From a virus (lineage: Duplodnaviria; Caudoviricetes), in IMG/VR virus record IMGVR_UViG_3300043173_000386, positions 7,344-71,343 of that record: DNA of 64,000 nt. One strand, 5' to 3'. A program made the position numbers and the translations under genes. Below the pieces are notes generated by a model. It saw only the letters and a program-made list of their open reading frames with translations, made no database searches and was not told the origin of the DNA. Numbering within the stretch: position 1 is the first letter of the stretch; each line of letters begins with the position of its first letter. Positions 21,628 to 54,366 of the stretch are shown piece by piece.

Positions 21628-21674
21628 TTGGGGCCAACCCGTAGGCACTCATGCGCCCCACCGGGCAGCCCCAA
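21628..21674 (-). promoter_or_regulatory. CGC-AUGA-GUG RNA hairpin on an extended stem (copy 1)
   Basis: UUGGGGC...GCCCG..GGGCGC AUGA GUGCCU.CGGGU.GCCCCAA on the minus strand, intergenic, upstream of the gene starting at 21595. Confidence 0.65.
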
Positions 21675-21721
21675 CCTGCTAACGACTCGTTGCAGTCTCC
21701 CAATCAGAGATATCGAGCCGT

Positions 21722-22336
21722 TCAACTCGCTTTCCGGTGCATCCGTGAGCGGCCCCGGTAGAAAATGCGCTTGAACTGTCCTTCTGGACTCTCGGCCAGT
21801 TCCAATTCCTGCGCCTTGCAATCAATCTCTTGCAGGGTGTCCATGCTCCAATCGTCGTCCTGTTCCATCGTTTTGAGCGTGAACTCAGCAAACTCAATTA
21901 GTCGCGCTTTCATGGTTGTCATGCCTTTATCCTCGATAGGTGTGGCGCTGATATCGAAATCCTCTAACACCTTGATTGGCACCGTTTCGTGAAAGTAATC
22001 AAGCGCGCTGCCGGGACTCTCGGCCTCAATGTCATACACGCCGACCACCCCTCGATCCAGTCCATGCAAATCCTCGGGCGCTCGGCCGCTTGTCACCTTG
22101 ACTCGATATTTCACGCGCGGCGCGATCTTGACCTCACAATCGGGCTGGTTCTCGACTGTTTCCAGCGGACACCCAACAGCCTCATTCCACTCGTCGCCGG
22201 GTCTGTCGCCTTCGCTTAGGTTGGCGATCCGCTTCAAAATGGCGGCGATCAACTCGGTTGGACTCGCCGGCCATTCGGCCGGTCTGTCCGTATCCAGGCT
22301 AAACGCGAACCCGTACAGGTGGTTGTACTTCTTCAC
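21722..22336 (-). CDS. Multi-domain hypothetical early protein
   Basis: GTG 22336 overlapping the upstream stop. Confidence 0.65.
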   Translation of the reverse strand: MKKYNHLYGFAFSLDTDRPAEWPASPTELIAAILKRIANLSEGDRPGDEWNEAVGCPLETVENQPDCEVKIAPRVKYRVKVTSGRAPEDLHGLDRGVVGVYDIEAESPGSALDYFHETVPIKVLEDFDISATPIEDKGMTTMKARLIEFAEFTLKTMEQDDDWSMDTLQEIDCKAQELELAESPEGQFKRIFYRGRSRMHRKAS

Positions 22337-22722
22337 AGCGCCGCCTCGGCCTTTTGCAAGGATTTGATTGCGTGTTCCGGCAGCTTGTATTTCTTGCCAT
22401 CGTCGCGTGTCGCAATGATCGGGAACTTGCGCGCCTTGGCGCTGATGCCGGCCAGCGTGTAGTGGTGGCCGTTGTAGTTGAAGGCCTCGCCGCGTTGATC
22501 CGCCTTGAGCCGGTAGAGCAAACACATTTGCTCGTATTCTTCCTTCTCCGGATCGTAGCCCTCGACCGCCACTTCCAGCTTGAACTTCACAGCATTGTCG
22601 GAATAGCTGGCGTTACCACAATGGATGGTGACGCCCAACTCCTTAGCCAGCGGCACAAGCGCCGCGTTCAGTTCGTCGCGCAGGGTTTTGCACAGTGCGC
22701 GTGTGATTTTCTCGATCTTCAT
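22333..22722 (-). CDS. Conserved phage early protein
   Basis: ATG 22722 after a triple-GGA leader; LRDELNAAL...FPIIATRDDGKKYK pattern. Confidence 0.75.
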   Translation of the reverse strand: MKIEKITRALCKTLRDELNAALVPLAKELGVTIHCGNASYSDNAVKFKLEVAVEGYDPEKEEYEQMCLLYRLKADQRGEAFNYNGHHYTLAGISAKARKFPIIATRDDGKKYKLPEHAIKSLQKAEAAL

Positions 22723-22787
22723 TCCTGTTCTCCTTTCCTTTGGTGTAAAGCAAGAAGGGCAACACTCGGAAGTGCTGCCCGTTTTGC

Positions 22788-23099
22788 TCACGCCAATTCG
22801 GGCGTGTATTTGAACGTGGCGCGGCTGTGCGGCTTGTTCATGGTCGCGGTCAGTTCGTTGGCCCTGATGCGGGCCTCATCCTCAGTAAACTCGCATTCCT
22901 CACCGTCTGCCTTGAGATAGGCTTGGTTGTAGCCAGTGATGCCGCCGCTTACCTCACACAAAATGCGCCAGTTCCGCACACCGTCGAAAATAGTCTCGCA
23001 TTCGACCACTTCCTCGTATTCGCCAAAGCGCGAAATTGGAACCTGGTGGACGATTTCGCCCGTTGATATGTGTCTGAATTGCTTGCTTGTGAATTGCAT
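22788..23099 (-). CDS. Hypothetical early protein
   Basis: Triple-GGA leader; WRILCEVSGGITG..AYLK pattern. Confidence 0.7.
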   Translation of the reverse strand: MQFTSKQFRHISTGEIVHQVPISRFGEYEEVVECETIFDGVRNWRILCEVSGGITGYNQAYLKADGEECEFTEDEARIRANELTATMNKPHSRATFKYTPELA

Positions 23100-23117
23100 T
23101 CCTGTACTCCTTTCCTG

Positions 23118-23471
23118 TCAGTGCCAATAGAGCGCGATCCACGTATCAGGGGCTAATTCCCTGACATACGCGATCGCTGCCCTGAGTTTGGGGTATTCGG
23201 CCACATAGGTCATGGCGGCAATGTCGCCGGCCTTGTAGATGCGAAACTCGTCGCCGTATGGGTCTGTGGTGCCTTCCATGTGGCCGTAGCCGGGCTCATC
23301 GTTGTCCAGCTTGCTCACATAGCTCGACCAGTTCACCGGCGGGTCATAGCCGCGTAGCTTCCGCAGTTCGTCGTGATATTCGTAATTGCTGCCTACATCA
23401 ATCAGCGTGTGGGCGTAATTGAAGTCCATCGAGCTAGTGCCTAGCACCAGAAATCCGAGGTCAACACTCAT
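23118..23471 (-). CDS. Hypothetical early protein
   Basis: Ends IALYWH; coupled. Confidence 0.7.
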   Translation of the reverse strand: MSVDLGFLVLGTSSMDFNYAHTLIDVGSNYEYHDELRKLRGYDPPVNWSSYVSKLDNDEPGYGHMEGTTDPYGDEFRIYKAGDIAAMTYVAEYPKLRAAIAYVRELAPDTWIALYWH

Positions 23472-23949
23472 GGCTGAAATCCTCGATAAACTTGTCGATT
23501 AACTCGTTGCGCCGGTCTTTGTCTTTCCAATCAGGCGGGCATTCGGGGATCAGGTCGGCAATGCGATCGCGCATGGTTGCGGTCAGCATGTTGTCACCCG
23601 AGGTCGTCGCGGCCAGATAGCCAATGCAGAACTTCACAAACTCCTTGTGATAGTTCCAAAATGTGTCGGTGTCGTCGGGATCGGTCAGCGCCAGATCGGC
23701 CACGCGCGTAATGAGTTGGTGTGCCATGTGGCGCAGTCCCATAGCGCGCTGTGCGTCTTTCCAGATACACGCTGCCGGGTGATTGTTGGCGGCGAAGGCC
23801 TCGACTGCGGCATGTGCGCCGCGGCCTCGCAAATAGACGCCATGATCGTCTGACATATCGGTGTACCAATCGAAGTGGTGTACCGCTAGGCAGAACTCCG
23901 CAAGGTCGCGGGGCGATTGTGGTAAGGCTTTGCTGCTTAATCTGCTCAT
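23461..23949 (-). CDS. Hypothetical early protein
   Basis: Triple-GGA leader; HHFDWYTDMSDDHGVY.RG pattern. Confidence 0.7.
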   Translation of the reverse strand: MSRLSSKALPQSPRDLAEFCLAVHHFDWYTDMSDDHGVYLRGRGAHAAVEAFAANNHPAACIWKDAQRAMGLRHMAHQLITRVADLALTDPDDTDTFWNYHKEFVKFCIGYLAATTSGDNMLTATMRDRIADLIPECPPDWKDKDRRNELIDKFIEDFSHEC

Positions 23950-23971
23950 TTCCTGTTCTCCTGTCCTGTGG

Positions 23972-24181
23972 TCAATCGTCTAGGGTTCGATCCTCAAACT
24001 TTAATTGCGCCTGAGCGTAAACAACTTCGGCCAGTTCCTCGGCCAGATCAGCGTCCCGCTCAGTGCTGAATACCGGGCCGGATGCCACGCTAATCAGCGG
24101 TATGTCTAAAATGGATTCGTCAAGGTCGTACACAACCACCTTGCAGCGCCACTTGCCTGTGATGTGGTCAAGCCGGCTCAT
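23972..24181 (-). CDS. Hypothetical early protein
   Basis: ATGA overlap with the upstream stop. Confidence 0.6.
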   Translation of the reverse strand: MSRLDHITGKWRCKVVVYDLDESILDIPLISVASGPVFSTERDADLAEELAEVVYAQAQLKFEDRTLDD

Positions 24182-24390
24182 TTCCTCGCCTCTTGTTTGA
24201 CCACCTTCGCCAGCACCTTGTAGATGGCGCGCTTGGTGGCCTTGATTGCGAAATCCTCGCCCTGCTCTCGCAGCACGTTATGGGCCGCATGTAGCGCAGT
24301 TGGGCCGGCATCCTCGATCGCCTCGACCAGCAACATCGCGCTGGCGGTGACAATCTGCTCCTGTTCTTTAATCGCTAATTCTCTGCTCAT
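24178..24390 (-). CDS. Hypothetical early protein
   Basis: ATG 24390 directly after the upstream stop. Confidence 0.6.
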   Translation of the reverse strand: MSRELAIKEQEQIVTASAMLLVEAIEDAGPTALHAAHNVLREQGEDFAIKATKRAIYKVLAKVVKQEARK

Positions 24391-24391
24391 A

Positions 24392-24733
24392 TCAGTATCC
24401 CGCGGCTTCGGCCGCATAGTCTCGTTGGCTGGCGTCTTTCACTTGCCAGTTGGGCCAGCCATCGGCGCTGATTTCTTCCAACCTGGCGGTGAGGTCGGTG
24501 TGCTGCGTCAGTCGTCCGTCGCAGTCGGTTCCGTCCGTAGTGATTGCCATGAGTAGCTCGCCGCGATCGAGGCTCCACGTATAGCCGGTGTGCGTCCAAC
24601 CTTCGTCATGGGCCTCGCCAAAACCCCAAGACAGGGATTGGCCCGGTTTGAGCGTTAGCGTTACCTCGCCCTCGTCTGGTCGGAATTTGAAGCGCGCATT
24701 GGGTGTGCCGGCTACCTGAGAAATAAGATTCAT
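24392..24733 (-). CDS. Conserved phage early protein
   Basis: NARF...LTLKPGQSL.W...DEGW...DGTDCDGR...QRDYAAEAAGY; AGGAGA RBS. Confidence 0.75.
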   Translation of the reverse strand: MNLISQVAGTPNARFKFRPDEGEVTLTLKPGQSLSWGFGEAHDEGWTHTGYTWSLDRGELLMAITTDGTDCDGRLTQHTDLTARLEEISADGWPNWQVKDASQRDYAAEAAGY

Positions 24734-24743
24734 TTTGTTTCTC

Positions 24744-25676
24744 CTAGACAAGTGTGAGCTGATGTGCTGTCGCGGCCCGGCCCCATTGATTAGCAAAGGC
24801 GGCGGCGATCCCGAGGTAGGTTCTGGCTCGATCCATCCAACGGGTATCGGATGGGCCTAGCTTGTTGTATCCGTTATCGGTCTGATTGGCCCAACGGGGC
24901 TTACCATCCACATAGCGGGGTTTGACGTATTCGGTGGGCTGTAGCAATGGCAAATTCTCAAGCCACAGGCCTGTGTTCTTGCTGGCATCCTCACCAAACT
25001 CGTTGGGTTGTATCCACTGGTCGGCCGGGCGTATGCGGGTGCCGATAACGCCGCGCGGGTTCTCAAGGCATTTGCGCCTGATCTTGGCGCCTAGCAACTC
25101 GCGCACAAAGTCCAGTGCTTCCTCGCGCGCTGCCCTGCGTTCTGCGCCTATCAGGGTGCCGGCCGCTATCTTCTTGGTCTGTACGTCGCGGTAGCACCAT
25201 TCGGCCGAACTGGTGAGGTAGGTGCAGTCGGGAAAGGCCAGCATGGTGTCCCAACCGTCGTTAATAATGTCGCGAACGTCGCCGCGATAATGGGGGCCGG
25301 GCTGTTCACTCTCCAACAGGTCGCAACTCAGAGCATCATGGCCCAATGCCAAGAACTCGTCGCGTACCCTGCCTGAGAACTCACAGGCGACCAGCACTCG
25401 GGATAAGGCATACTGCGCCACCCTTGCCCGGCCCCACGCTTCTGTGACCGCTGGCTCGATATCCGCCCACGAATCAACGTGTGGCATCTGCTTGTGAACG
25501 GCCGACTCCATCCATGCGTGTGCGTCGTCAAAATCAAATACATGGTCGATTTGAGGATCATGCTCTGCCACGTTCCTCAAATTGATCTGTGTCAGTTGGC
25601 TGCTGGTATGCGCTACCCGAACAGCCGCCGAGAAATCAGCGGCCAGCCGGGTAACGTCGAGCCCATGCGAGTGCAT
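24744..25676 (-). CDS. C5-cytosine-methyltransferase-like protein with N-terminal fused domain
   Basis: RVLVACEFSGRVRD...SCDL...GDV...WD.M.AFPDCTYL...LENPRG...IQP.EFG..ASK.TGLWL..LP.L; extra ~90-aa N-terminal domain. Confidence 0.75.
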   Translation of the reverse strand: MHSHGLDVTRLAADFSAAVRVAHTSSQLTQINLRNVAEHDPQIDHVFDFDDAHAWMESAVHKQMPHVDSWADIEPAVTEAWGRARVAQYALSRVLVACEFSGRVRDEFLALGHDALSCDLLESEQPGPHYRGDVRDIINDGWDTMLAFPDCTYLTSSAEWCYRDVQTKKIAAGTLIGAERRAAREEALDFVRELLGAKIRRKCLENPRGVIGTRIRPADQWIQPNEFGEDASKNTGLWLENLPLLQPTEYVKPRYVDGKPRWANQTDNGYNKLGPSDTRWMDRARTYLGIAAAFANQWGRAATAHQLTLV

Positions 25677-25678
25677 GT

Positions 25679-26032
25679 TCACGCGGCAGCGGCTCTCTTG
25701 TAGCCAGCGGCCCACTTGACCACGGCATCCTTGAGCGCCTTCTGCATGTTGGTCATTGGCCGGTATCCGTACTCGGCCATGCTCAGGTCGTCGCGACCAA
25801 TGGCCTCAAGCGCCGCCGTGACATTCATCAATTTCATTTCGATGCTGCCTTTGGATCGTGCGACCAGTGCGCCAAATTCGCCGCCGGGCTGTTGCAGTTC
25901 CTCGCCTCTGGCGTGTCGGATCATTGCGGCCTTGTTGTAATCCTCGCCGTGGGTGGAGTGCCACCACATGCTGCGATACAGGATTAGCGTGTGTCCGATT
26001 TCGTCGGCAGTCCAAGGGCCGGCGCCTTTCAT
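25679..26032 (-). CDS. Stand-alone domain resembling the N-terminal domain of HNH/restriction-type nucleases
   Basis: WT.DE...Y..M...G..YNK...RSKGSIEMKLMNV.A.L...G...GYRP..N.Q..L; ATG 26032 in ATGA overlap. Confidence 0.55.
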   Translation of the reverse strand: MKGAGPWTADEIGHTLILYRSMWWHSTHGEDYNKAAMIRHARGEELQQPGGEFGALVARSKGSIEMKLMNVTAALEAIGRDDLSMAEYGYRPMTNMQKALKDAVVKWAAGYKRAAAA

Positions 26033-26355
26033 GGGCAACACCCACAACACGGTGCATCTTCGCAACGTGGCCCTGATTTGCCGAGGAACGTGCCATCGGG
26101 TGAATAGGCGCCAGTGGGATCATAGTGGCTGGCGATACGGCCGGGCGACCAGTTCTCGCTTTCCTCTTGGGTGAGGGCTCGGGGGCTGTCATTGCCGTTG
26201 CGCTTGGCATTGGTGTTGACATACGGCTTTTGCTCATGGCACTCAAGGCCATAGATATGTTTCGGCCCGTAGTACCGGGCGCGAGCGCCGGCCGGCAAGG
26301 TGGCGCCACAATCGGCACATACCGCCTCGCGTTTAAGGGTGAGTGTCTTAGCCAT
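26029..26355 (-). CDS. Cys-rich early protein (CEDAPCCGCC family)
   Basis: N-terminal CADCG...CH and C-terminal RCEDAPCCGCC. Confidence 0.75.
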   Translation of the reverse strand: MAKTLTLKREAVCADCGATLPAGARARYYGPKHIYGLECHEQKPYVNTNAKRNGNDSPRALTQEESENWSPGRIASHYDPTGAYSPDGTFLGKSGPRCEDAPCCGCCP

Positions 26356-26386
26356 CGGTTTCTCCTGTCCTGTTGTGAAAGCAATA

Positions 26387-26410: not shown

Positions 26411-26419
26411 GTGCTGCTC

Positions 26420-35869: not shown

Positions 35870-36279
35870 AAAACACTATTGCCAAAACCCGCGACTACGG
35901 TGAATTTGTCATTCGCCAGCAGTACGTGGACACCAAGGATTCCGAGCTCAGTTCGGATTACCAGCCTGCCCTGGTTATCTGCCGTGCGAAGCGCATACAG
36001 TCGCGTTGCGCGTGGATTATCATGCTGTCGAGCGCATTCAAGTACGTTGACGACCCGCAAAAGGGCGGTCACTCGTACTACATGCAAGCCGCCAGCCTGC
36101 AGATCTGCAAGATGCTAGGACTATCGGAAACGAGAGAGCAAGCGTTCAGAATAGCCGAGGCTATCTTGGGAAATCTCGAGGATTTGATCAACATGCCGCC
36201 GGTGGACTTCCAGCCGGATCCGATCGCGGATATTTCGGCCAATATTGACGGCACACATATCGAGGCGACGATTCACTGA
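35866..36279 (+). CDS. Conserved pre-portal hypothetical protein
   Basis: Coupled to the portal gene; LEDLINMPP pattern. Confidence 0.7.
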   Translation: MKNTIAKTRDYGEFVIRQQYVDTKDSELSSDYQPALVICRAKRIQSRCAWIIMLSSAFKYVDDPQKGGHSYYMQAASLQICKMLGLSETREQAFRIAEAILGNLEDLINMPPVDFQPDPIADISANIDGTHIEATIH

Positions 36280-38543
36280 TGGTAGCTTCTGTAGAAAATA
36301 TGCGGAACTTGAAGCGTGGCGTTCAACCGCTGGATGCCCGCTTTGAACAGTTTGACGACGAGCCCGAGGAATCCACAGTTCACCCGTTGGACACGCCCGA
36401 GAGCGTCACGCTGCTGAAAAAGCTGCAGGAATGGTGGAACGAAGCCCGCACAGCTCATTCTGAAAACCGGTTTCAACAGTCAATCGACGCCGATTTTTAC
36501 GATGGTCTGCAATGGGACGACCGGGACGCCGAGATCTTGCGAGAGCGCGGCCAGGCGCCGCTGGTGTTCAACAAAACCGCGCAGCACATAAACTGGCTGC
36601 TTGGCACCGAACGCCGCACCCGCGTCGATTTCAAGGTACTGCCGCGCAAAGACCACCACGAACAAGTAGCCAAGTCCAAAACCAAGCTGCTGAAATACGT
36701 CTCCGATGTGAATAAATCGCAGTTCTCGCGCTCACGCGCGTTTGCGGATTCGATGAAAGTGGGTGTTGGCTGGCTTGAGGACGGTATTCGCTCGGACCCA
36801 CGCGAGGAACCGTTATTCAGCCGCTACGAGCACTGGCGAAATATGTGGTGGGATGCGCTCGCCAAAGAGCCGCATCTGCAGGACGGTCGCTATATTTTCC
36901 GCGTCAAGTGGACAGATTCGGACGTTGCCGAGGCGATGTTCCCTGAGCGAAAGAACGTACTGCAGCGCACCGCCCGGCATTCAGATCTGAACTTTTTTGA
37001 GGACGACGACGAGTTTATCTTCACTTCGTTGTATCACGATCATCGTGGCAACAACCCGGTCTTTGCCCGAGGCCGGTCTTTCTTGGATACGAGTTTCAAC
37101 ATAGGTAATCGCCGCAGGCGAAATAAGTTAATTGAGTGCTGGTATCGAAAGCCGGTCAGCGGGCAATTTCTTCGCTCCAAACCCCACGCACTGATGCAGC
37201 CTGAGTTGCTTGATCGCCTCGATGCAGTCAACGGACTGCCGTTTGAGGCCGGCGATATCGACCAGAAATTCCTCATGGATCAAAACCTTGTATCGACATT
37301 TGATGCCGTGGATATGCAAGTGTGGGTTGCCATTTGGAGCGGCGATCACTTGCTGCAGAACGTCCAGAGTCCGTACAACCACAACCGTTTTCCGTTCACT
37401 CCGATTTGGGCTTTCCGACGCGACCGGGACGGAATGCCATACGGCCCGATTCGCAACATGCGGGACGCTCAGGAAGATCTGAACAAACGCAAATCCAAAG
37501 CCCTGTTTATCCTCTCCACCAACCAGCTCATCGGTGACGAGGACGCTTTCGAGGATTGGGACGAAGCGATTGACGAAGCCGCGCGCCCTGATGGCGTTCT
37601 CAAACACAAGCGCGGTGCGTCTTTCGAGATCAACCGAAACATCGACTTGGCCGAGGAACACGTTCAACTGATGCGCGACGATATCGCGTTCCTTGAGTCG
37701 GCATCCGGCGTTACCGAGGAAAACCTGGGCGAAGTGACCAACACCAACTCGGGTACGGCGATCAATCTCAGGCAGACACAGGGATCGGTGGTTACTGCCC
37801 TGCTGTTTGACAATCTGCGTGAGTCGATCCAGCTCCAAGGCGAGATCGACCTGTCGCTGGTGGAACAGTTCTACGCCGAGCCCAAGATGGTTCGTATCGT
37901 GGACGATAGCGGTCGCACCGATTTCTTAGAGGTCAACACGGCGCAACGCGACGATGATGGCAACCTGAGCGTGTTGAATGCAATCACCGAGTCACAGGCT
38001 GATTTCATCGTGGATACACAGGATTTCCGCGAAACCATACGCCTCGCCATGTTCGATCAGCTCATGGAAATGACGACCAGGCTGGATCCGGAAATCACCA
38101 TGCAGCTCCTTGACCTGATTATTGATATGTCCGATCTGCCAGAGAAGGATGAGATTGTTCGCCGCATCCGAAAGATCAACGGCATGACAGATCCGGACGA
38201 TCCGAACCGCGACCAGATTGAGGCCGACGCGGCGGCAGAGGATAAAGCCGACAAGGATCGTGTGCGTAGAGGCGAGGATGCCAAGACCGCCAAGGATGAG
38301 GCAATGAGTGATAAAGTCGCCGCCGAGGCGGCCGGCACTCGGGCCGAAACCATCCAGCAAGCTCTGGAAATCGTCGCCGCACTCAAGGGCGATTCAAATT
38401 TAGCAACGGCAGTCGATATTATGATGGCTTCCGTTGAGGAACCGGGGACTGGTTCAGCAGCGCAAGCCTTATTGGCTGGCCCGCCGAGTCAGACCTTGGA
38501 AATTGAAACCCCGTTTGATGTTGAAACGGATACTCAGCAATAG
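36279..38543 (+). CDS. Portal protein (P22-like/podoviral)
   Basis: DADFYDGLQW, ERGQAPLVFN, PYGPIRNMRDAQEDLNKRKSK, SGTAINLRQTQG; position after terL. Confidence 0.9.
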   Translation: MVASVENMRNLKRGVQPLDARFEQFDDEPEESTVHPLDTPESVTLLKKLQEWWNEARTAHSENRFQQSIDADFYDGLQWDDRDAEILRERGQAPLVFNKTAQHINWLLGTERRTRVDFKVLPRKDHHEQVAKSKTKLLKYVSDVNKSQFSRSRAFADSMKVGVGWLEDGIRSDPREEPLFSRYEHWRNMWWDALAKEPHLQDGRYIFRVKWTDSDVAEAMFPERKNVLQRTARHSDLNFFEDDDEFIFTSLYHDHRGNNPVFARGRSFLDTSFNIGNRRRRNKLIECWYRKPVSGQFLRSKPHALMQPELLDRLDAVNGLPFEAGDIDQKFLMDQNLVSTFDAVDMQVWVAIWSGDHLLQNVQSPYNHNRFPFTPIWAFRRDRDGMPYGPIRNMRDAQEDLNKRKSKALFILSTNQLIGDEDAFEDWDEAIDEAARPDGVLKHKRGASFEINRNIDLAEEHVQLMRDDIAFLESASGVTEENLGEVTNTNSGTAINLRQTQGSVVTALLFDNLRESIQLQGEIDLSLVEQFYAEPKMVRIVDDSGRTDFLEVNTAQRDDDGNLSVLNAITESQADFIVDTQDFRETIRLAMFDQLMEMTTRLDPEITMQLLDLIIDMSDLPEKDEIVRRIRKINGMTDPDDPNRDQIEADAAAEDKADKDRVRRGEDAKTAKDEAMSDKVAAEAAGTRAETIQQALEIVAALKGDSNLATAVDIMMASVEEPGTGSAAQALLAGPPSQTLEIETPFDVETDTQQ

Positions 38544-38564
38544 CTTCGCATGAGTGAAGGAGTA
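38531..38564 (+). promoter_or_regulatory. CGC-AUGA-GUG hairpin (copy 2) sequestering the scaffold RBS
   Basis: UACUC...CUUCGC AUGA GUGAAG GAGUA; the AAGGAG SD lies in the 3' strand. Confidence 0.65.
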
Positions 38565-38569
38565 GGAAA

Positions 38570-39508
38570 ATGAGCAAAGACGCCGCTGCGGTAGCAGCAA
38601 CCGATACGCCGACCGACGATGAGCAGGCAGCAGCAAAACCCGGCCTGTCTGACGAGGAAAAGGCCGCTTTAGCCGCCGAAGATGATCAAGCCGGTGGCGG
38701 CACAAAAGACGATAAGGCTGCAGACGCGGCAAATCCTCCCCTGGATGCGGCTGACGCCGATTCAACTGCTGATGCCGCTGCCGGCGCTTCTGACGACAAA
38801 CCAGACGCACCGCCCGAAATACCGCGTGGTGCCGCGGCCAACGTAAATCTGCAACCGTCGCGAGCTGTCGATTTGAACCTTGTCAATGAGCGATTGGGAA
38901 CCCTTACCGACCTACAGGCCGATTTGGACAAGAAGTACGACGATGAGGATTTGACCGCTAAGGACTATCTGGCCCAATCTCGCGATATCACACAGGAAAC
39001 CGCCGATCTCAACGCAGACATACGTGAGGCGCATTTCGTTTCCAGTGCCAACGCAACGCTCGCAGTGACCGATTGGCAGCGGTCGGTCAACGATTTTGTT
39101 GACAGCAACGCCGAGTTCAGCAGCAGCATCATGCAGGGCGCACTGAACGCTGCACTGAATGAGCTGTACACAGAGGAAGCTAATTTCGGCTCGTCGCACA
39201 ACTGGTATTTGCAAACGGCGAAACGTGCCGTGCTTGAACAAATTTCGCCGGCCGACGCGGCTGCCGCTAATCCATCGGACGCGGATCCCAATGCCAAAGC
39301 AGTCGCCGCAGCCAAGGGCGCTGCTGATAAAGCCGCCGACGCCAAGGGCAAGTTGCCGAAAACACTGAGCGACGTACCCGCGGCTGACGACGCCGGCACC
39401 GGCAAGGATAAGTTTGCCGATATCGACAATCTTGAGGGCGTCGAGCTGGAAGCCGCCTTGGCAAATATGACCACCGAGCAAGAACAAGAGTATTTGCGGG
39501 CCGAATGA
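38570..39508 (+). CDS. Putative capsid scaffolding protein
   Basis: Acidic Ala/Asp-rich, coiled, between portal and capsid; C-terminal LEAALANMT.EQ..YL. Confidence 0.75.
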   Translation: MSKDAAAVAATDTPTDDEQAAAKPGLSDEEKAALAAEDDQAGGGTKDDKAADAANPPLDAADADSTADAAAGASDDKPDAPPEIPRGAAANVNLQPSRAVDLNLVNERLGTLTDLQADLDKKYDDEDLTAKDYLAQSRDITQETADLNADIREAHFVSSANATLAVTDWQRSVNDFVDSNAEFSSSIMQGALNAALNELYTEEANFGSSHNWYLQTAKRAVLEQISPADAAAANPSDADPNAKAVAAAKGAADKAADAKGKLPKTLSDVPAADDAGTGKDKFADIDNLEGVELEAALANMTTEQEQEYLRAE

Positions 39509-39726
39509 TGGCTCGCGTTTTTTTAACCGTAAAAACCGGGAAAACGCTCTACATTGACGTAGCCAAGCTATTTCCCGAACTCGTTCTGAATGGTGCGGGG
39601 CAAGTGTCTCTCACCCTAAGAGCAAAGAAAGGAAGATCGGCCCGCTTTGAAGTTGTTGCAGATGAGAGGGTGTTCATAGACTTGCACCCCCAAAGTAGTG
39701 TAAAACTCGCAGCGGATACTCAGTAA
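39505..39726 (+). CDS. Divergent CsrA-fold protein
   Basis: LTVKTGKTLYI...VSLTL..K.GRSARFEVVADERVFI follows the CsrA beta-strand pattern but lacks the HREE (R44) motif. Confidence 0.55.
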   Translation: MMARVFLTVKTGKTLYIDVAKLFPELVLNGAGQVSLTLRAKKGRSARFEVVADERVFIDLHPQSSVKLAADTQ

Positions 39727-39733
39727 AAAAGTA

Positions 39734-39761
39734 GGTTCCGGGTCGCATGAGTGACTGAACT
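39734..39761 (+). promoter_or_regulatory. CGC-AUGA-GUG hairpin (copy 3) in the major capsid leader
   Basis: GGUUC-cg-GGUCGC AUGA GUGACU-GAACU. Confidence 0.65.
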
Positions 39762-39787
39762 CTCCCCACCACCGGAGGTAGTTACTC

Positions 39788-40915
39788 ATGGCGCGCACAA
39801 TCATTGGGTTAAATGATCCCAAGGCCGTAAAAAGATTCAGTGCGTTTCTGGCAGTCGATACCGCTCGAATCAGTTATTTCAATCGCAAGTTCATGGGGGT
39901 CGGTCCCGAGAGCGGGATGCCGATTCAAATGCTACCCGAGCTGGAAAACGACGCGGGCGAGCAAATCACTTTTGATCTGATCATGCAGCTCAGGCAGCAA
40001 CCGATTGAAGGCGACGACGTTCAGGAAGGCACCGAAGAAGATCTCAAGTTCTACACTGATCAGGTTTTTATAGATCAGATGCGCGGCGGCGTAAATGTCG
40101 GCGGTCGCATGACGCGGAAACGTACCATTCACGACTTGCGACGGATCTCTCGTCGCAGACAGTCCGAATGGTGGGGCCGGGTATTCGATGAGTTGTTTTT
40201 CATCTACCTTTCCGGCGAACGCGGCGAGAACACCGAGTTCATCTTCCCCACGACCTACGCCGGGTTCGCAAACAACCCGTTGCAGACTCCCGACGCCGAT
40301 CACAGGCTGTACGGTGGTGACGCCACTTCCAAGGCAACGGTTGACGCTGCCGACATAATGGACACCGATGTTATCGACCGCAGCAAGACGCGGGCGGTGA
40401 TGATGGGTGGCGGTACGCAGGGAACACCGCAGATTCAGCCCATTATGATCGACGGTGAGGAACACTACGTTCTTCTGATGAGCCCCTGGCAGGAGTTCGA
40501 TCTCCGCACCGCGGCCGGCGCGTCCAACTGGCTTGAAATCCAGAAAGCCGCTGCCACCGCCGAAGGCCGTAAGTCCCCGATTTTTAAGGGCGGCCTTGGG
40601 ATGCACAATAATGTCGTACTTCAGAGTCACAAAGGAGTGCTTCGTTTCACAGACTACGGTGCAGGAACCGATGTAGCTGCCGCCAGAGCCTTGTTCATGG
40701 GCGCACAAGCTGGCGTAGTCGCGTTTGGCTCACCCGGCACCGGGCTCCGTTTCGACTGGCACGAAGAAAGCCGCGATAACGGCAACCAGGTGGTAATCTC
40801 CACTTCCTCAATCTACGGATTGAAGAAAACGAGGTTTACCATCGAAGGCACAGCGAAGGACTTTGGCATCTTGGCGGTTGATACCGCGGCTGCTGATCCG
40901 GCGCCTGTCACTTAA
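39788..40915 (+). CDS. Major capsid protein (N4-gp56/DUF4043-like)
   Basis: ELENDAGEQITFDL...EGDD..EG.EE.L..Y.D...IDQ.RGGV..GGRMTRKRT; NPIFKGGLG-like and AARALFMGAQA motifs. Confidence 0.9.
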   Translation: MARTIIGLNDPKAVKRFSAFLAVDTARISYFNRKFMGVGPESGMPIQMLPELENDAGEQITFDLIMQLRQQPIEGDDVQEGTEEDLKFYTDQVFIDQMRGGVNVGGRMTRKRTIHDLRRISRRRQSEWWGRVFDELFFIYLSGERGENTEFIFPTTYAGFANNPLQTPDADHRLYGGDATSKATVDAADIMDTDVIDRSKTRAVMMGGGTQGTPQIQPIMIDGEEHYVLLMSPWQEFDLRTAAGASNWLEIQKAAATAEGRKSPIFKGGLGMHNNVVLQSHKGVLRFTDYGAGTDVAAARALFMGAQAGVVAFGSPGTGLRFDWHEESRDNGNQVVISTSSIYGLKKTRFTIEGTAKDFGILAVDTAAADPAPVT

Positions 40916-41410: not shown

Positions 41411-41422
41411 AATCCATGAGTG

Positions 41423-41447
41423 GCCCGCCCTTCGGGGCGGGCTCTTA
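41423..41447 (+). terminator. Intrinsic terminator-like hairpin after the capsid genes
   Basis: GCCCGCCC-TTCG-GGGCGGGC then TCTTA. Confidence 0.7.
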
Positions 41448-41469
41448 CAGGCCTGGGGAGGACGACGAA

Positions 41470-42045
41470 ATGCTGATTGAGTGCAGACAGCGCCGCGATG
41501 CGCGGCCAAGTAAACGTGTCGGTCGCAAAGACCTTGATCTTGGCACGAAATCCAAAGTACACGGCAAACGCTACTGGTTCAGACCGCAACCCGATCTGAT
41601 CAGCAATGGCGGTGATCCACTCGCGCATGTGTGCGAGGTTGAAGATCCGAAAGCCATTGAACGCTATTTGTCGATTGCCGAGGCATACAACGAATTTGGC
41701 AAGCCGCCGCGGGTAGCGCCAGAAGGCCGGGAGTTTGCCAGTGGCGGTCAGCCTGAAATCGAAACCTTGTTGCTCGATGCGGACGATGCTCTCGGCAAGC
41801 GCGATTCCAAACCTTTTACCTCGGATCCGCTTGAACGTGCGCGTGAGCTGCAGGGCGAGTGGGTTCAGGATATGCTCGACAAGTCCGTGCATGATATCGT
41901 TAAAACCGTGCCGGGCCTGCAGGACAGTGAGGTTGCTTTACTGCTTAACGGCGAGAATAAAGGCCAGCAACGATCTGAGCTATTACAAGCCTTAGATCCT
42001 GCTTTTGTTGCACCAGGGGAGACAACAGACATTCAGATGGAGTAG
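41470..42045 (+). CDS. Hypothetical head-associated protein
   Basis: ATG 41470 after GGGGAGGA; Y.F.P...HVCEV.D..AIERYLSI.EAY pattern. Confidence 0.7.
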   Translation: MLIECRQRRDARPSKRVGRKDLDLGTKSKVHGKRYWFRPQPDLISNGGDPLAHVCEVEDPKAIERYLSIAEAYNEFGKPPRVAPEGREFASGGQPEIETLLLDADDALGKRDSKPFTSDPLERARELQGEWVQDMLDKSVHDIVKTVPGLQDSEVALLLNGENKGQQRSELLQALDPAFVAPGETTDIQME

Positions 42046-48329: not shown

Positions 48330-50168
48330 GTGGCTTCTCGATTTAGTATTTGGTGGCGCCGTGGCCGCCAATTAGCGAAGCTACCCCCGCTCGACCGTTT
48401 TGCACCACCACCGCCACCGGGGCAACCGGTGTCGGCGTTTACGCCGCATTTCCAGCAGACGCAAAACACCACTCACCGGCGAACGCCGGAAGAAAGCCCG
48501 CACAATCCCGAGCATCCCGCGACTCCTGAGCCGCCGTTTGCGTTCGGTGCGGTAACGCCCGCGACTTCGATCAAGCGCCGCGAGACTCGTCGCCAGCGCA
48601 TACCTGATCCGTTCCATTACGACAAGCCATTAACCACGCGGATCACGCATCTGACCGCGATGGCCTTGTACGGCCAAGGTCCGCCGACTACGCGGATCAC
48701 TCACCTGACCGCAATGGTCTTGTATCGAAATCCAACCTCTCAGGGCCATCCTGAGACGACACCGCCCAAGAAGGGCAAAAAGCGCAAAAACACATTCCCG
48801 TTTGGTACTTCTGCTGGTCGCAGCAGACGCCAGCTACCACGACTTGACACATTCGCGCCGACACCGCCCGGCTTTTTTGCTGGTCAAATTCCGTCATTCG
48901 TACCGTCAGGCTTCTTCAAGAGCTCGTTCACGCGCACCTTGCAGCAGCCGCTTGAGCTCGATCAGCGGCCACCTACGCCGCCACCGCCTGTATCGGTTGT
49001 TGCCGAGACACCAGCACTTAAAGCCAATTTCAGCCGCTTCACGCGCAAGTTACTGACTCCGCTTGAGCTGAATGAACACCCGGCAACGCCGCCCTCAGTA
49101 ATCCCGCCAGCCGCGCTAGATCTGCTGCTTGAGGCCAACCTGGTTGAGTTCAAACGGCAGATCCAGAAGCTACCGCAGCTCGATCAACGACCACCCACGC
49201 CACCACGATTCTTTGAAGGCTTCTGGCCTGCGTCAGATCCATTCCCGACCTTCAAGGTATCGTTTGATCGTAAGCTGCTGACACCGGCAGAGATTGACGA
49301 GTACCCGCCGCCGCCGCCATCGGCTGATCTTTACTCGGCCATTCACAAGTCGCCGGCGGCCATCAGAAGTGAGTTCAAGCGAACGCTGCAAACGCTTGGC
49401 AACCCACACGTTTATCCGGCGACACCGCCCGGCTTTAGGTGGCCGCGTCCACCGATGCCGACGCACAAGGTTGCGTTCGATCGCAAGCTGCAAACGCTGG
49501 CGCATAACGAGGAATACCCGGCGACACCGCCCGGCTTCTTTGAGGGGCAGTGGCCGTCGCACAAGCCACCACCAACGCTAAAGGCATCGTTCGCCCGCCA
49601 GCTCAAGCTGCCGCCAGAACACAACGTCTATCCGCTGCCGCCAGTATCGGCAGACGACTATGCCGGCTATACGCCTGTTCCGAAGTTCACTCAGTCGTTC
49701 ACCAGACAACTGCAGGCGCTTGGTAATCCGCATGTGTATCCGGCAACACCGCCTGGATTCAGATGGCCGCGGCCACCGATGCCAACGCACAAGGTTGCGT
49801 TCGCACGGCATTTGCAGCAATTACCGCAGCTCGATGAGCGTCCGTTGGCGGCGGCAATACAACCACCGCAGCCTGCGGTCGAGTCGTTCAATGTCAGCTT
49901 TACTCGAGATCGACAAGAGCTCGCACACAACTCAGCCTATCCACCGACGCCGCCGAGCATCATCGAGGGCATGGCGCCGTGGGCGGCTCGATCCATCCGG
50001 CGCCGTGAAACACGCCGCAAACTGCAGCCGGTATGGGATCCATCTTCAAACATACCGGAACTGTTTGTACCGGGGCTCACTATTTGCTGGCGAGCTGATC
50101 CTATCAATCTTGTCTGGAAGGCCTGCGCTGACGGTACAACTTGGTTCGCAGATCCACTGTGCGATTAA
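48330..50168 (+). CDS. Proline-rich tandem-repeat protein 1
   Basis: About 10 units of (S/E/A)F.R.LQ...(E/V)YP.TPP.F..WP; variation is mostly synonymous in this frame; C-terminal CW.AD...W.A motif. Confidence 0.75.
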   Translation: MASRFSIWWRRGRQLAKLPPLDRFAPPPPPGQPVSAFTPHFQQTQNTTHRRTPEESPHNPEHPATPEPPFAFGAVTPATSIKRRETRRQRIPDPFHYDKPLTTRITHLTAMALYGQGPPTTRITHLTAMVLYRNPTSQGHPETTPPKKGKKRKNTFPFGTSAGRSRRQLPRLDTFAPTPPGFFAGQIPSFVPSGFFKSSFTRTLQQPLELDQRPPTPPPPVSVVAETPALKANFSRFTRKLLTPLELNEHPATPPSVIPPAALDLLLEANLVEFKRQIQKLPQLDQRPPTPPRFFEGFWPASDPFPTFKVSFDRKLLTPAEIDEYPPPPPSADLYSAIHKSPAAIRSEFKRTLQTLGNPHVYPATPPGFRWPRPPMPTHKVAFDRKLQTLAHNEEYPATPPGFFEGQWPSHKPPPTLKASFARQLKLPPEHNVYPLPPVSADDYAGYTPVPKFTQSFTRQLQALGNPHVYPATPPGFRWPRPPMPTHKVAFARHLQQLPQLDERPLAAAIQPPQPAVESFNVSFTRDRQELAHNSAYPPTPPSIIEGMAPWAARSIRRRETRRKLQPVWDPSSNIPELFVPGLTICWRADPINLVWKACADGTTWFADPLCD

Positions 50169-50179
50169 GAGGATGAACG

Positions 50180-51211
50180 ATGGCACTTTTACTGATCGAA
50201 GGGTTTGAGCAATACACGATAGGCGATTCGCCAGAATTGGCTCGGGGTGGTTGGGCAGCCAACACCACACTCAACAACAGTTTTTACATTTTGAAAGCAG
50301 GGCGACACGCTGGCGGGCAAGGGATTGAACTCGCTCTTAACGGCGGCAATCTGTTTCACCCCATACCGGCAACCGATGTTGTAACGGTTGGCTTTGCTTA
50401 CCGCATGGTCGATGCCGGTCCTTCTGCTCAAACTTTCTTGAATTTGCGAAATGGTCTTATTGATCACTTGGGTTTGGTTGCCACCGTTGGCGGTGAACTT
50501 CGATTGAATCGTGGCGTTACTCAGATCGACATTACGAGCGGCCTGGGTCTGACGCAGAACATTTGGTATTACTTTGAGATTGACGCCACAATCCACAACA
50601 GCACAGGTGCCTACGAAGTTCGTTTAGACGGTGCCACGATATTGAGCGATACCGGTGTTGATACGCAAAATGCCGGTGACGCTGTAGTGGACAATATCGA
50701 GTTTTTGGGCAACTCCGCGACTGATAATGAATTTGACGATATCTATGTCCTCGATGATGCCGGCACTGACAATACTGGCCTACTTGGTGATTGCCGGGTT
50801 GAAACTGTTTTTCCAGATGCGCTTGGCAATGAGAATGACTTCACGGCATCGCCGGCAGTAGATCAACACTTAAACGTCGATGATGGCGTCACGCCTGACG
50901 ACGACACGACCTATAACTGGTCTGCAACAGCGACAGACAGAGAACTCTATGGATTCGCTGCACTGACCGGAAATGTCGGCACTGTCTTTGGTGTTGATGC
51001 AAAAATGCTGTGCAGAAAAGAAGATGCCGGCTTTCGTGAGGTTCGCGTGATTGCCCGCAGCAACATAACCGAAGTCGAGAGCGGCAATCTGACGCTTGGC
51101 GTTGACTATATCTACAAGAACAACATTTACGAAAATGATCCCAACGGTGGAATAAACTGGACTGAAACATCGGTCAACGCGGCGCAGTTCGGAATAGATC
51201 TGCAAACGTGA
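50180..51211 (+). CDS. Lectin-like tail appendage protein, paralog 3
   Basis: EGFEQY, WYYFEI, DDIYVLDD...LGDCRVET.FP, DPNGG.NWT...VNAAQFG. Confidence 0.75.
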   Translation: MALLLIEGFEQYTIGDSPELARGGWAANTTLNNSFYILKAGRHAGGQGIELALNGGNLFHPIPATDVVTVGFAYRMVDAGPSAQTFLNLRNGLIDHLGLVATVGGELRLNRGVTQIDITSGLGLTQNIWYYFEIDATIHNSTGAYEVRLDGATILSDTGVDTQNAGDAVVDNIEFLGNSATDNEFDDIYVLDDAGTDNTGLLGDCRVETVFPDALGNENDFTASPAVDQHLNVDDGVTPDDDTTYNWSATATDRELYGFAALTGNVGTVFGVDAKMLCRKEDAGFREVRVIARSNITEVESGNLTLGVDYIYKNNIYENDPNGGINWTETSVNAAQFGIDLQT

Positions 51212-51219
51212 TGTAGGTC

Positions 51220-54200
51220 GTGACCACCTACACAGAAGATTGGTCTGGTGAAGCAGACGGTGTTTATCCGTCAGGTCTGACAAAACGATGGACAACCACC
51301 AATGAAACAGTCGTTGCGGCCAACTCACTTGCGGAGGCCGAAGATAATTTCACGTTTGAGCAAGAATGGTCGTCCACTTCGGTTCGCAGGCTCAACAGTT
51401 TTAACGCAATAGATGGCGATGCCAACCGCGATGATCTCGACCTCGTAGTACGGTTCCGAATAAACGAAACACCCGGCGATTACCAGTACGGACTTACGGT
51501 TCGTGCATCTGGCACCGCGGGCTCGGAAACCGCGTATGACTTTTGGGTGGTTGAATCAGTCGCCAATACCTTTTTCGTCCAGTTGATCGAGCGCAACTCC
51601 GGCGTAAACGGAGCAGTGGTTTCCGGTGCGGATCAAGTCTCTGATGTAGCCAACGGTGATTGGCTCTACATGCGGGTGCGATGCAATGGCACCACCTTAC
51701 AAGGCAGGCTGTGGAAACCCGATGAAACGGAACCGACGACTTGGAGCCTCGACACGACCGATGCGACGATCACCGCAGCCGGTTGGGGCGGCATCCTCGG
51801 TTTCACGACTGGCTCAAATGCGGAAACAGATTATATAGCCGCCGGTACAGCCGGCGACACCGCACCGATAGATGCGTCAACGAATACCGTTCTTCGGATC
51901 ACTGCCGGTTACGGCGCAGCCCTCGTAACAGATGCCAGCGTTCCGGTGCGCCTCACAGCGGCCTACGCGGCAGCTCTGGTCAAAGACGACACGACGCCGG
52001 TACGGATCACGGCCGCTTACGCGGCAGTCTTATATTCCGGCGCCGTCGATGTGTTGCCAGCGTCAGCCTATATACCGGCGCCACTGCCCTTCAAAACGAG
52101 CTTTGCCCGGAAACTCCAAGTCCCTGCCGAGTTGGATGAACACCCGCCGACACCTATCTCGGTTGCCGCTGAAACGCCAGCCTTGCAGGCGAACCGTGTC
52201 TCATTTGAACGCGATCTCCAACAACCGCTGCAACTGGACACGCGACCGAAAACACCCATACCGCCAGCCGCCTTCATTCCTGTACCCAAGGCGAACCTGA
52301 CTTCGTTCAAGCGCGTTCGCCAGGTAGTCCTCAATCCTCATGTTTACCCGCCAACACCGGCAGGATTTTTCGACGGTTTCTGGCCCGGCTCCAAGCGCGT
52401 CGAGGCGATCCTTGCCGAATTTGAGCGTGAACTGCAGAAGCTACCGCAGCTTGACGAATTTGAGGTAACACCGCCGGGCTTCTTCGCTGGTCAGTTCCCG
52501 GCAGCGGTCAGGCTCAAGCGGATCCCGAGCGCCTATCATCGCGAGGCGAAAGCTCCGCTTGAACTGAACGAGCGCCCGCCGACGCCACCGGGCTTTTTCG
52601 AGGGTCACTGGCCGGCGCCGATCCCTGATCCAACGCATCGAACGTCCTTCAAGCGGACGCTGCAAACCCTTGCAATTCCACCGGTTTACCCGAAAACGCC
52701 GGTATCTGCGGAGGACTACGGCGGCTATACTAAATTTCCGGCTGAAAACCGGATTGAATTTAACCGGCAAATTCAGCCGGTCCTCAATCCGCATGTGTAT
52801 CCAGAGACACCGTTCGGCTTCCAGTGGGGTTTCTACCCCGGATCGAAGGCGGTCGAGTCCTTCAAGGTTGAGTTCAAGCGAACCCGGCGAGATCTCCCGC
52901 ACAACCCTGAATATCCCCCGACGCCAGCCGGTTTCTTTGATGGCTTCTGGCCCGGATCGAAGGCAGTTGAATCGTTCAATGTCTCGTTTACTCGGGTCGC
53001 TCAGAAGCTACCTGAGCTCGATGAGTTTGAGCCCACGCCGCCACGATTCTTTGAGGGCTTCTTCCCCGCGCCATTCAGGATCAAGCGGATCCCGAGCTCA
53101 TACCATCGGCAAGCGCAGCGCGTTCTCGATCCGCATGTGTACCCGACCACTCCTGTCGGATTCTTTGACGGTTTCTACCCCGGATCTAAACGGGTTGAGA
53201 GCTTTGTATCGTCATTCAAGCGGACAGTTCAGAAGTTACCTGAGCTTGATCGTTATAAGCCCACACCGCCGCGGTTCTTTGAGGGCTTCTTCCCGGCTCC
53301 TTTCCGCGTCAAGCGGATCCCGAGCTCCTACCATCGTGAGGCACAGCGCGTTCTCAACCCGCATGTGTATCCGGCTACGCCTGTCGAACACTGGCCGGCT
53401 CACAAGCGCGTCGAGGTCAACCGGACAGCGTTCACACGGCGTTTGCAGACACCACTTGAGATCGACCGCTATCCGGAAACTCCGAAATCCGCGGTTGCCT
53501 ACGCCGGGCATACGCCTGTACCGACGCTCAAGGCCTCGTTCACGCGCCGGCTGCAGAGCCTCGGCAACCCGCATGTGTATCCACCGACGCCAGCAGGCTT
53601 TTTCGATGGCTTCTGGCCTGGATCTAAGCGTGTAGAACCACTGCGTAGTGCATACGAGCGCCGCCTTGCAAAACTGCCGCAGCTCGATGAGCGTCCACCG
53701 CCGCTGCCTGTGGTGCTGGCGCTGCCGCAGCCGGCGAAACGAGTCAAATTTACACGTAGCGTCCAGACGGTAATTCACCCCGAGCTGCCAACGCCAACCC
53801 CGCCGGGCTTCCGTTGGCCGAGGCCGCCGCCACCTGTTCTCAGGAGTGAGTTCACGCGCGAGCTGGCGAAGCTGCCGCAGCACGATCAATGGACGCCGAC
53901 CCCGCCGCGCTTCTTTGAGGGCCAGTATCCGGCTGCCTTCCGGGTAGAGACTCACAAGGTATCGTTCAAGCGAACGCCGCAACCGGTTGTGTTAAGCAGA
54001 TTCCGACCGGTTGCGATAGTGACCGCTTATCGGGCTGTCACTACCATTCGTCGGCGGGCCACCACCTTCAAAGCCTTTGCGCCACCGCTGCTGCAGCTCA
54101 GTCGTATTTTCCCGCCATCGTTCATTATTGGTGACGCCAGATGGCAGATGCGGGCTATTTACCGACGCGACATTCAGCGGGTCATTCAGCCAGTGTGGAA

Positions 54201-54309
54201 CGCATCGCCTATTGTTGCAGAGGGTTTCCGTCCTTCGGATCCGGACTGCATCTGGCTCGCGGATTGTGCGCCTACCGTGTGGTTAGCTCAGGATGAGTCC
54301 TGTATTTGA
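51220..54309 (+). CDS. Lectin-domain + proline-rich tandem-repeat protein 2
   Basis: ConA-like N-terminal domain, three R(I/L)TA motifs, about 18 Pro-rich units of the same type as 48330-50168, C-terminal CIWLADC..VWLA. Confidence 0.8.
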   Translation: MTTYTEDWSGEADGVYPSGLTKRWTTTNETVVAANSLAEAEDNFTFEQEWSSTSVRRLNSFNAIDGDANRDDLDLVVRFRINETPGDYQYGLTVRASGTAGSETAYDFWVVESVANTFFVQLIERNSGVNGAVVSGADQVSDVANGDWLYMRVRCNGTTLQGRLWKPDETEPTTWSLDTTDATITAAGWGGILGFTTGSNAETDYIAAGTAGDTAPIDASTNTVLRITAGYGAALVTDASVPVRLTAAYAAALVKDDTTPVRITAAYAAVLYSGAVDVLPASAYIPAPLPFKTSFARKLQVPAELDEHPPTPISVAAETPALQANRVSFERDLQQPLQLDTRPKTPIPPAAFIPVPKANLTSFKRVRQVVLNPHVYPPTPAGFFDGFWPGSKRVEAILAEFERELQKLPQLDEFEVTPPGFFAGQFPAAVRLKRIPSAYHREAKAPLELNERPPTPPGFFEGHWPAPIPDPTHRTSFKRTLQTLAIPPVYPKTPVSAEDYGGYTKFPAENRIEFNRQIQPVLNPHVYPETPFGFQWGFYPGSKAVESFKVEFKRTRRDLPHNPEYPPTPAGFFDGFWPGSKAVESFNVSFTRVAQKLPELDEFEPTPPRFFEGFFPAPFRIKRIPSSYHRQAQRVLDPHVYPTTPVGFFDGFYPGSKRVESFVSSFKRTVQKLPELDRYKPTPPRFFEGFFPAPFRVKRIPSSYHREAQRVLNPHVYPATPVEHWPAHKRVEVNRTAFTRRLQTPLEIDRYPETPKSAVAYAGHTPVPTLKASFTRRLQSLGNPHVYPPTPAGFFDGFWPGSKRVEPLRSAYERRLAKLPQLDERPPPLPVVLALPQPAKRVKFTRSVQTVIHPELPTPTPPGFRWPRPPPPVLRSEFTRELAKLPQHDQWTPTPPRFFEGQYPAAFRVETHKVSFKRTPQPVVLSRFRPVAIVTAYRAVTTIRRRATTFKAFAPPLLQLSRIFPPSFIIGDARWQMRAIYRRDIQRVIQPVWNASPIVAEGFRPSDPDCIWLADCAPTVWLAQDESCI

Positions 54310-54328
54310 GCGGTGTTTTCGGGTATAA

Positions 54329-54366
54329 GATCGGCATTGGGTCGCATGAGTGACCGCCAACTGATC
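54329..54366 (+). promoter_or_regulatory. CGC-AUGA-GUG hairpin (copy 4) on an extended stem
   Basis: GAUCGG-ca-UUG-GGUCGC AUGA GUGACC-gc-CAA-CUGAUC; 16-nt exact match to copy 3. Confidence 0.65.

Follow-up and report, generated by a model that had tools for sequence, protein, structure and literature searches.

Why should a phage carry the same short RNA hairpin in the leaders of several of its late genes, and what might read it? The question is raised by a stretch of 64,000 nucleotides (nt), hereafter the window, that comprises bases 7344-71343 of a 71,343-base-pair (bp) uncultured phage record (IMG/VR IMGVR_UViG_3300043173_000386) and derives from a Bcep22/GP4-like podophage. A first-pass annotation of this DNA had listed four 16-nt hairpins with an invariant apex and compensated lower stems, and had offered a protein-binding operator, an antitermination box or an RNase III-type processing site as possible roles for a motif that it did not recognize. 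According to the analysis reported here, the hairpin, designated P1, probably serves late-gene leaders as an RNA operator and is probably read by a diverged CsrA-fold protein of the phage itself, which is co-translated with the scaffold protein from a small gene (the wedge gene) lying between P1 copies 2 and 3.

All four hairpins are present with exactly the sequences first given, lower stems included (Table 1). The 10-mer at their apex, CGCATGAGTG, has five exact matches in the window, where 0.29 would be expected (at least five copies in 0 of 100 shuffles), and six in the 71-kb genome; the sense orientation relative to local genes that had been described for the hairpins holds for all six. 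The four intergenic copies have three additional compensated base pairs per side, a lower stem that is absent from the other two occurrences, which lie inside or at the end of open reading frames (ORFs); one of these two is the stemless apex previously seen just upstream of ATG 14353. When a covariance model of the hairpin was applied, the four copies were its top matches, at 22–28 bits. The longer stems claimed for every copy are clear in copy 1, which caps a stem of ~22 bp (21625-21677) located 48 nt 5' of the start of a DUF6166 gene (21595), and moderate in copies 3 and 4, but weak in copy 2. In the scaffold leader the stem, described earlier as burying the Shine-Dalgarno sequence (SD), does overlap it: the AAG of AAGGAG belongs to the 3' arm of copy 2.

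Building a covariance model for use in related phages, a check suggested at the outset, reveals a hairpin that is both conserved and covarying. The comparison set consisted of 80 IMG/VR loci around relatives of the capsid gene (61–99% identity). P1 is found in almost all of their capsid leaders, where its core begins 31–53 nt 5' of the capsid start codon, and also in the capsid leaders of Bcep22, GP4, Itty13, SopranoGao, POI1126 and Atu_ph08. Across 48 distinct P1 sequences, pairing is formed in 90% of cells as compared with 70% in shuffles, and the covariation score is 0.508 as compared with 0.151 for shuffled sequences (0 of 500 shuffles reach the native value), dropping to 0.03–0.20 in slid controls. 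In these same sequences the loop is A-N-G-A and the apical pairs C-G, G.U and C-G are fixed (G.U is kept in 47 of 48), while the two pairs beneath the apex are formed in 100% of cases using five pair types each. In 49 relatives the model yields 53 matches, every one of them on the sense strand; the capsid leader has one everywhere, nearer clades also have one in the scaffold leader, and other late genes are occasionally preceded by one. The covariation and the restriction of model matches to the sense strand thus identify P1 as an RNA-level element; the repeated hairpin is genuine, and relatives conserve it.

P1 also accompanies its gene. In Atu_ph08 and POI1126 the capsid gene has been relocated and P1 moves with it; in another relative (L061) a homing-endonuclease gene (3330-3998, phrog_314, 5e-15) is inserted between the CsrA-like and capsid genes, and P1 still abuts the capsid gene, overlapping the 3' end of the endonuclease gene. 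The scaffold-leader hairpin of nearer relatives has AUGA, AGGA or AAGA as its loop, and one clade has an AGGAG loop that doubles as the SD. Copy 4 is kept in relatives L178/L147 and L154. A scan of the phage collection for the 15-mer GGTCGCATGAGTGAC gave 72 matches, about the number due to chance by rough estimate, and was used only for finding extra copies in contigs of known relatives.

Two further observations concern hairpins in these relatives. Atu_ph08 carries the reverse complement of the P1 core (GCACTCATGCG) ~110 nt 5' of its capsid start, in a divergent intergenic region where the site is sense for an oppositely transcribed DUF847 gene; the covariance model lists six candidate P1 sites in that genome. 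Relatives L034, L036, L045 and L055, and G003 at a second site (L165), carry another kind of hairpin, in which GCAUGAGC is enclosed by perfect G-C stems and the G.U pair is absent. This type is often situated 20–35 nt 5' of P1 in capsid leaders, and may be a second docking site or a stabilizer.

How could such a hairpin influence its neighbors? In the leaders, the spacer between SD and start codon, often together with the AUG, is complementary to the loop and 3' arm of P1 (anti-P1), and a second hairpin (P2) is located between P1 and the SD, with a 3' arm that usually covers part of the SD; analogues of P2 are seen in relatives. The minimum free energy (MFE) fold of the window's capsid leader, at -27.4 kcal/mol, has a 12-bp alternative helix stacked on P2, with both SD and AUG buried, as compared with -16.4 kcal/mol when P1 is enforced; over 55 leaders the corresponding means are -22.1 and -16.3 kcal/mol. 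The start-hiding fold is the predicted ground state. When the P1 5' arm is made unavailable, the remaining half of P1 pairs through at least 5 nt with the initiation region in 50 of the 55 leaders. Native duplexes of the P1 half with the initiation region have a mean energy of -9.0 kcal/mol, as compared with -6.5 ± 0.29 kcal/mol for partners permuted between genomes (0 of 500 permutations reach the native value). The P1/anti-P1 complementarity covaries across relatives: matched variants of P1 half and spacer include GAAGUG/CACUUC, GAAAGU/ACUUUC and AGGUGC/GCAUCU, with GGAUGUGC/GCACAUCC in Bcep22, GGAGUGUG/CACACUCC in GP4, and a matched pair in POI1126 as well. The same module also precedes other late genes in relatives. 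Copy 4 has the layout of the capsid leader, placed ahead of a 14-codon upstream ORF (uORF); 13-codon counterparts that overlap the adaptor start at TAATG occur in two relatives (L178, ~845-886; L154), the position being kept in three genomes, and the adaptor leaders of these two relatives show the same layout with a different register of complementarity. The fixed distance to the start codon and the alternative pairing with the initiation region together argue that P1 acts on translation.

These results bear directly on two of the roles first offered. As an antitermination (nut/boxB-like) element, or a protein-binding site at the DNA level, P1 would be a short hairpin with a fixed loop lying between the genes of long operons, which indeed it is; however, no terminators or promoters flank the copies (no intrinsic terminator, sought as a GC-rich stem followed by a U tract, is found at any of them), the G.U pair is conserved, model matches occur exclusively on the sense strand, P1 keeps a fixed distance to start codons, and there is no match in Rfam, either at the gathering score for the whole window or at E<=5 for 38450-39850. 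Resemblance to lambda boxB/nut is also lacking, as the loop is an ANGA tetraloop and not a GNRA-like pentaloop and the copies lie inside the late operon with no promoter nearby (boxA and N protein were not searched for). With a fixed start-codon distance and an alternative pairing that engages the translation-initiation region, the antitermination box is not supported, and this family of explanations seems to us scarcely credible. An RNase III-type processing or stability site, where late mRNAs would be matured or stabilized through cleavage of the copy 1 stem or of the alternative helix with P2, fares slightly better but is very improbable. The ~22-bp stem of copy 1 and the ~17 bp of the capsid alternative helix plus P2 can be set beside the ~20 bp or more sought for such a site, and for these two a processing role is conceivable, but P1 itself has only 6–7 bp, RNase III requires no fixed apex sequence and so leaves the invariant apex unexplained, and the association with start codons and with SD spacers suggests a function in translation.

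The remaining option, a protein-binding operator, gains from comparison with known CsrA sites. [quoted passage not shown] P1 of Bcep22 is CAGGAUGU, whose loop, AGGAU, matches the SELEX core; the form in many relatives is CAGGAGUG (loop AGGA), and that in the window phage is CAUGAGUG (loop AUGA). The CA...GU flanks that close the loop are present throughout, GCA-N-GA-GUG being invariant, and a second GGA is found in the SD, ~25–35 nt 3' of P1 or overlapping it in the scaffold leader, although this is a weak test in that any SD has GGA. The motif that originally went unrecognized can therefore be read as a CsrA-type site on the basis of the relatives' AGGA loops and the Bcep22 sequence, but GGA itself is absent from the copies in the window. 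Loops in this P1 family vary as A-N-G-A, the first G of GGA therefore being free. P1 is thus like the operators of CsrA, RsmA and RsmE (glgC, hcnA) in having a short hairpin, a purine-rich loop between CA...GU, a second GGA in the SD within bridging distance and, as predicted here, a CsrA-fold reader; it is unlike them in its 4-nt A-N-G-A loop, its invariant C-G/G.U/C-G platform, its stem of 6–7 bp, and its targets, which are the phage's own virion genes.

A candidate reader is encoded next to the operators themselves. The wedge protein matches Bcep22 gp54, annotated as a 'CsrA-like regulator' and encoded directly 5' of the Bcep22 capsid gene, at 2e-8 by BLASTP. A profile built from 34 wedge homologues matches CsrA/RsmE structures over the whole domain at 1.6e-7 to 8.8e-7, and 14 of the 34 match Pfam CsrA (PF02599) individually. 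For an AlphaFold model of the wedge protein (predicted local distance difference test, pLDDT, 79.5) the ten best PDB matches are all CsrA/RsmA, with probability 0.96–1.0 and with E-values of 0.09–0.4 that are weak for so small a fold. By sequence and by predicted fold, then, the wedge protein belongs to the CsrA family, from whose typical members it differs by a loop insertion of ~14 amino acids (aa) and the want of an Arg44 equivalent. The set of CsrA RNA-binding residues (Arg44, Arg6/Arg7, Leu2/Leu4) is not retained; the strand 1 Leu and Lys equivalents are partly kept. The annotated CsrA-like regulator genes of Bcep22 (gp54), JC1 (gp47), GP4 and SopranoGao are of this same family and occupy the same place beside the scaffold gene. 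At 39495-39517(+) the scaffold stop and the beginning of the CsrA-like ORF are both covered by a terminator-like hairpin that is followed by T7 and has the ATG as part of its loop. Transcription of the regulator and capsid genes could be attenuated here, or the hairpin could mask the start of the regulator.

The wedge gene and P1 are found together. All 80 relatives carry the gene, as do Bcep22, GP4, Itty13, SopranoGao, POI1126 and Atu_ph08; in Atu_ph08 and POI1126 it stays with the scaffold gene while the capsid gene lies elsewhere. The capsid leaders of five more distant capsid relatives without a wedge gene (Vibrio K249, douglas 12A4, 933W, KPP25 and Y7) have no P1-type hairpin, the covariance model finds no P1 anywhere in Vibrio K249, and in the F116-like BR208a, where other CsrA genes are present, the capsid-leader hairpin is absent. 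The conjunction of a CsrA-type A-N-G-A hairpin with a CsrA-fold gene between copies 2 and 3 favors the protein-binding operator among the roles originally proposed.

The window phage also encodes a canonical CsrA, in a leftward operon (Table 1). Most relatives that keep P1 lack this gene, only some having it, and some hosts (Burkholderia cepacia and B. cenocepacia) have been reported to have no chromosomal csrA (PMC7366521); for both these reasons it is the wedge gene that is the consistent partner of P1. The same facts constrain a further explanation, in which P1 together with anti-P1 tunes or delays translation as a device made of RNA alone, or in which P1 is read by some other protein, i.e., the canonical phage CsrA, host CsrA, or the scaffold or coat protein. 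The two-state fold does exist without protein, the phage does encode a canonical CsrA, and the scaffold protein of P22 controls its own synthesis post-transcriptionally, which lends weight to another reader. In an RNA-only device, however, the apex should covary freely, yet C-G/G.U/C-G and A-N-G-A are fixed; canonical CsrA is missing where P1 is kept, and is offered no GGA by AUGA; and host CsrA is not available in hosts reported to lack it (PMC7366521). We judge this explanation distinctly unlikely in either form.

The preferred reading, that the wedge protein reads P1, builds on direct observations (a covarying hairpin, an alternative pairing that covaries as well, a gene of CsrA fold, and the joint occurrence of this gene with the hairpin), from which we infer that the wedge protein binds P1 and in which direction it regulates. 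The wedge protein would grip the apical A-N-G-A loop presented on the fixed C-G/G.U/C-G platform. In the scaffold leader, where P1 overlaps the SD, bound protein would block ribosomes; scaffold would thus be under negative feedback, and so would the regulator, to which repression would extend because the two ORFs are coupled. In the capsid and adaptor leaders P1 would compete with the more stable fold, in which its loop and 3' arm pair with anti-P1, stacked on P2, and bury the ribosome-binding site (RBS). P1 would form first during transcription, and protein on its loop would stop invasion by anti-P1, such that the start site stays open; capsid translation would thereby be licensed only after scaffold and regulator had been made. 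A strongly self-sequestered RBS would be puzzling for the most abundant virion protein unless an activator existed.

The principal competitor keeps the same protein but makes it a repressor only, its dimer spanning, in each leader, from the loop of P1 to the GGA within the SD, much as at glgC or hcnA, and so holding down late proteins. This is the canonical mechanism of CsrA (PMC7652899), it accords with the GGA found ~25–35 nt from the P1 loop in every leader's SD, and the scaffold-leader P1 overlaps or is the SD. It leaves unexplained the conserved, covarying anti-P1 complementarity, however, and it would have the most abundant virion protein turned off in both RNA states. We consider repression alone unlikely, and rank below it tuning by RNA alone, a different reader, processing by RNase III, and antitermination.

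Several points weigh against the wedge protein as a P1-dependent activator of capsid translation. The sign of control at the capsid leader is derived from predicted energies alone, and the classical geometry of CsrA repression, a hairpin site and an SD bridged over ~25–35 nt, is also present here. The window's wedge protein falls below the cut-off when compared singly with Pfam CsrA, and at the position equivalent to Arg44 it has Leu, a position that is variable across the family; this variability is in keeping with a free first G of GGA. Taken together, an AUGA loop without GGA, the Pfam miss and Leu at the Arg44 position mean that the specificity would have to be new. A basic residue at that position is associated with GGA loops at an odds ratio of 6 (raw Fisher p=0.008), but when phylogeny is controlled only seven independent pairs are available and the median p is 0.5, which is not significant. 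The co-distribution of wedge gene and P1 includes no independent loss events, the pair being retained by all 80 relatives, and shared ancestry could explain it. Finally, no relatives of the DUF6166 gene 3' of copy 1 were found with which copy 1 might be compared.

Phage CsrA-like genes have been treated as 'moron' genes or host modulators, or their role has been left untested (PMC9144972, PMC8310193, PMC7366521, PMC11879866), and in the papers searched no description of the P1 hairpin or of a cis target was found. A bolder proposal, which we put forward tentatively and with more doubt than confidence, is that the wedge protein is not a host-directed moron but a morphogenesis checkpoint, having acquired a new specificity for an A-N-G-A tetraloop on the C-G/G.U/C-G platform that requires no GGA, produced along with scaffold, feeding back negatively on scaffold, and licensing capsid and tail-adaptor synthesis by locking P1 against the start-hiding fold. 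If so, a protein-gated RNA switch would order head-protein synthesis across a whole podophage lineage. CsrA-like genes are widely annotated in phages, and P1 gives them a hypothetical role in translation of the phages' own virion proteins, which would also account for the retention of the wedge gene in all 80 relatives examined. If the two-state leader works, it would be a compact protein-gated translational switch with an operator unlike the canonical GGA site, and possibly an orthogonal regulatory part. The window itself contributes the GGA-free AUGA form of the operator, four copies in one genome with a canonical CsrA alongside, a coupled uORF heading the adaptor operon, and measures of covariation for P1 as well as for anti-P1.

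Alternation of a start site between closed and open forms, with a small protein shifting the balance, is familiar from the phage Mu Com/mom and lambda cIII/RNase III leaders, which differ from the present case in their unrelated protein families and single-gene targets. The E. coli ymdA leader can likewise hide its RBS in a hairpin, and CsrA binding favors the open form (PMC7492729, PMC7652899); there, however, CsrA melts the sequestering hairpin from inside, whereas here the protein would stabilize a competing upstream hairpin and block strand invasion. Copy 4, which precedes a uORF overlapping the adaptor start, recalls iraD, where CsrA represses via a translationally coupled uORF (PMC5574718), although the operator at copy 4 is P1 and not a set of GGA sites.

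The coordinates of P1, its associated elements and the surrounding genes are collected in Table 1. The head region gave no match to the phage collection by megablast, and a scan for transfer RNA genes found none.

Table 1. Positions of P1 copies, leader elements and relevant genes (window coordinates unless marked genome)
Feature	Position	Strand	Details
P1 copy 1	21643-21658	-	10-mer 21646-21655; lower stem GGG/CCU; covariance model 23.3 bits
P1 copy 2, scaffold leader	38544-38559	+	10-mer 38547-38556; lower stem CUU/AAG; 3' arm overlaps SD AAGGAG 38557-38562; 22.1 bits
P1 copy 3, major-capsid leader	39741-39756	+	10-mer 39744-39753; lower stem GGU/ACU; 24.9 bits
P1 copy 4, adaptor/head-closure operon leader	54340-54355	+	10-mer 54343-54352; lower stem GGU/ACC; 27.8 bits
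Stemless 10-mer copy	14366-14375	-	13 nt 5' of ATG 14353; 10.2 bits; function uncertain
Sixth 10-mer copy	genome 6036	+	inside the 4,827-aa virion-protein ORF; outside the window
P2 hairpin, capsid leader	39761-39778	+	3' arm is SD GGAGG 39774-39778; predicted by folding
Anti-P1, capsid leader	39779-39790	+	spacer plus capsid AUG; complementary to 39746-39757 (P1 loop and 3' arm)
Remainder of copy 4 leader	54361-54390	+	P2 54361-54376; SD GGGAG 54376-54380; anti-P1 GUCAC 54382-54386; GUG start 54388
14-codon uORF	54388-54432	+	stop overlaps adaptor start (TGATG); read from sequence
Wedge gene, diverged CsrA fold, 73 aa	39505-39726	+	start overlaps scaffold stop; between copies 2 and 3
Canonical CsrA gene, 62 aa	12477-12665	-	leftward operon; Pfam CsrA 38.4 bits; LRHELY motif kept
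Portal gene, P22-type	36279-38543		
Scaffold-position gene	38570-39508		
Major capsid gene	39788-40915		
Adaptor gene, GP4 gp77-like	54432-54746		
Virion or polyvalent protein ORF, 4,827 aa	genome 1433-15916		window up to 8573

Three candidate features near the P1 copies were set aside. The sequence CGGATACTCAG, previously pointed out ahead of copies 2 and 3, is present at both places, but as a second operator it was rejected: it is coding sequence, forming the final codons of both the portal and the CsrA-like ORF, and only the closest relatives keep it. Translation might also have started at the AUG within the P1 loop; this AUG shares the frame of the uORF at copy 4 but not in relative L178, AGGA and AAGA loops have no AUG, and it was treated as incidental. 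The fifth match of the covariance model (20.8 bits) is a perfect 7-bp hairpin with loop AUGU at 41616-41641(+), within ORF 41416-42045, whose stem is not maintained in four relatives. It is not counted as a P1 copy because its conservation follows the peptide and not the stem; the hairpin probably arises incidentally from conservation of the peptide DPLAHVC.

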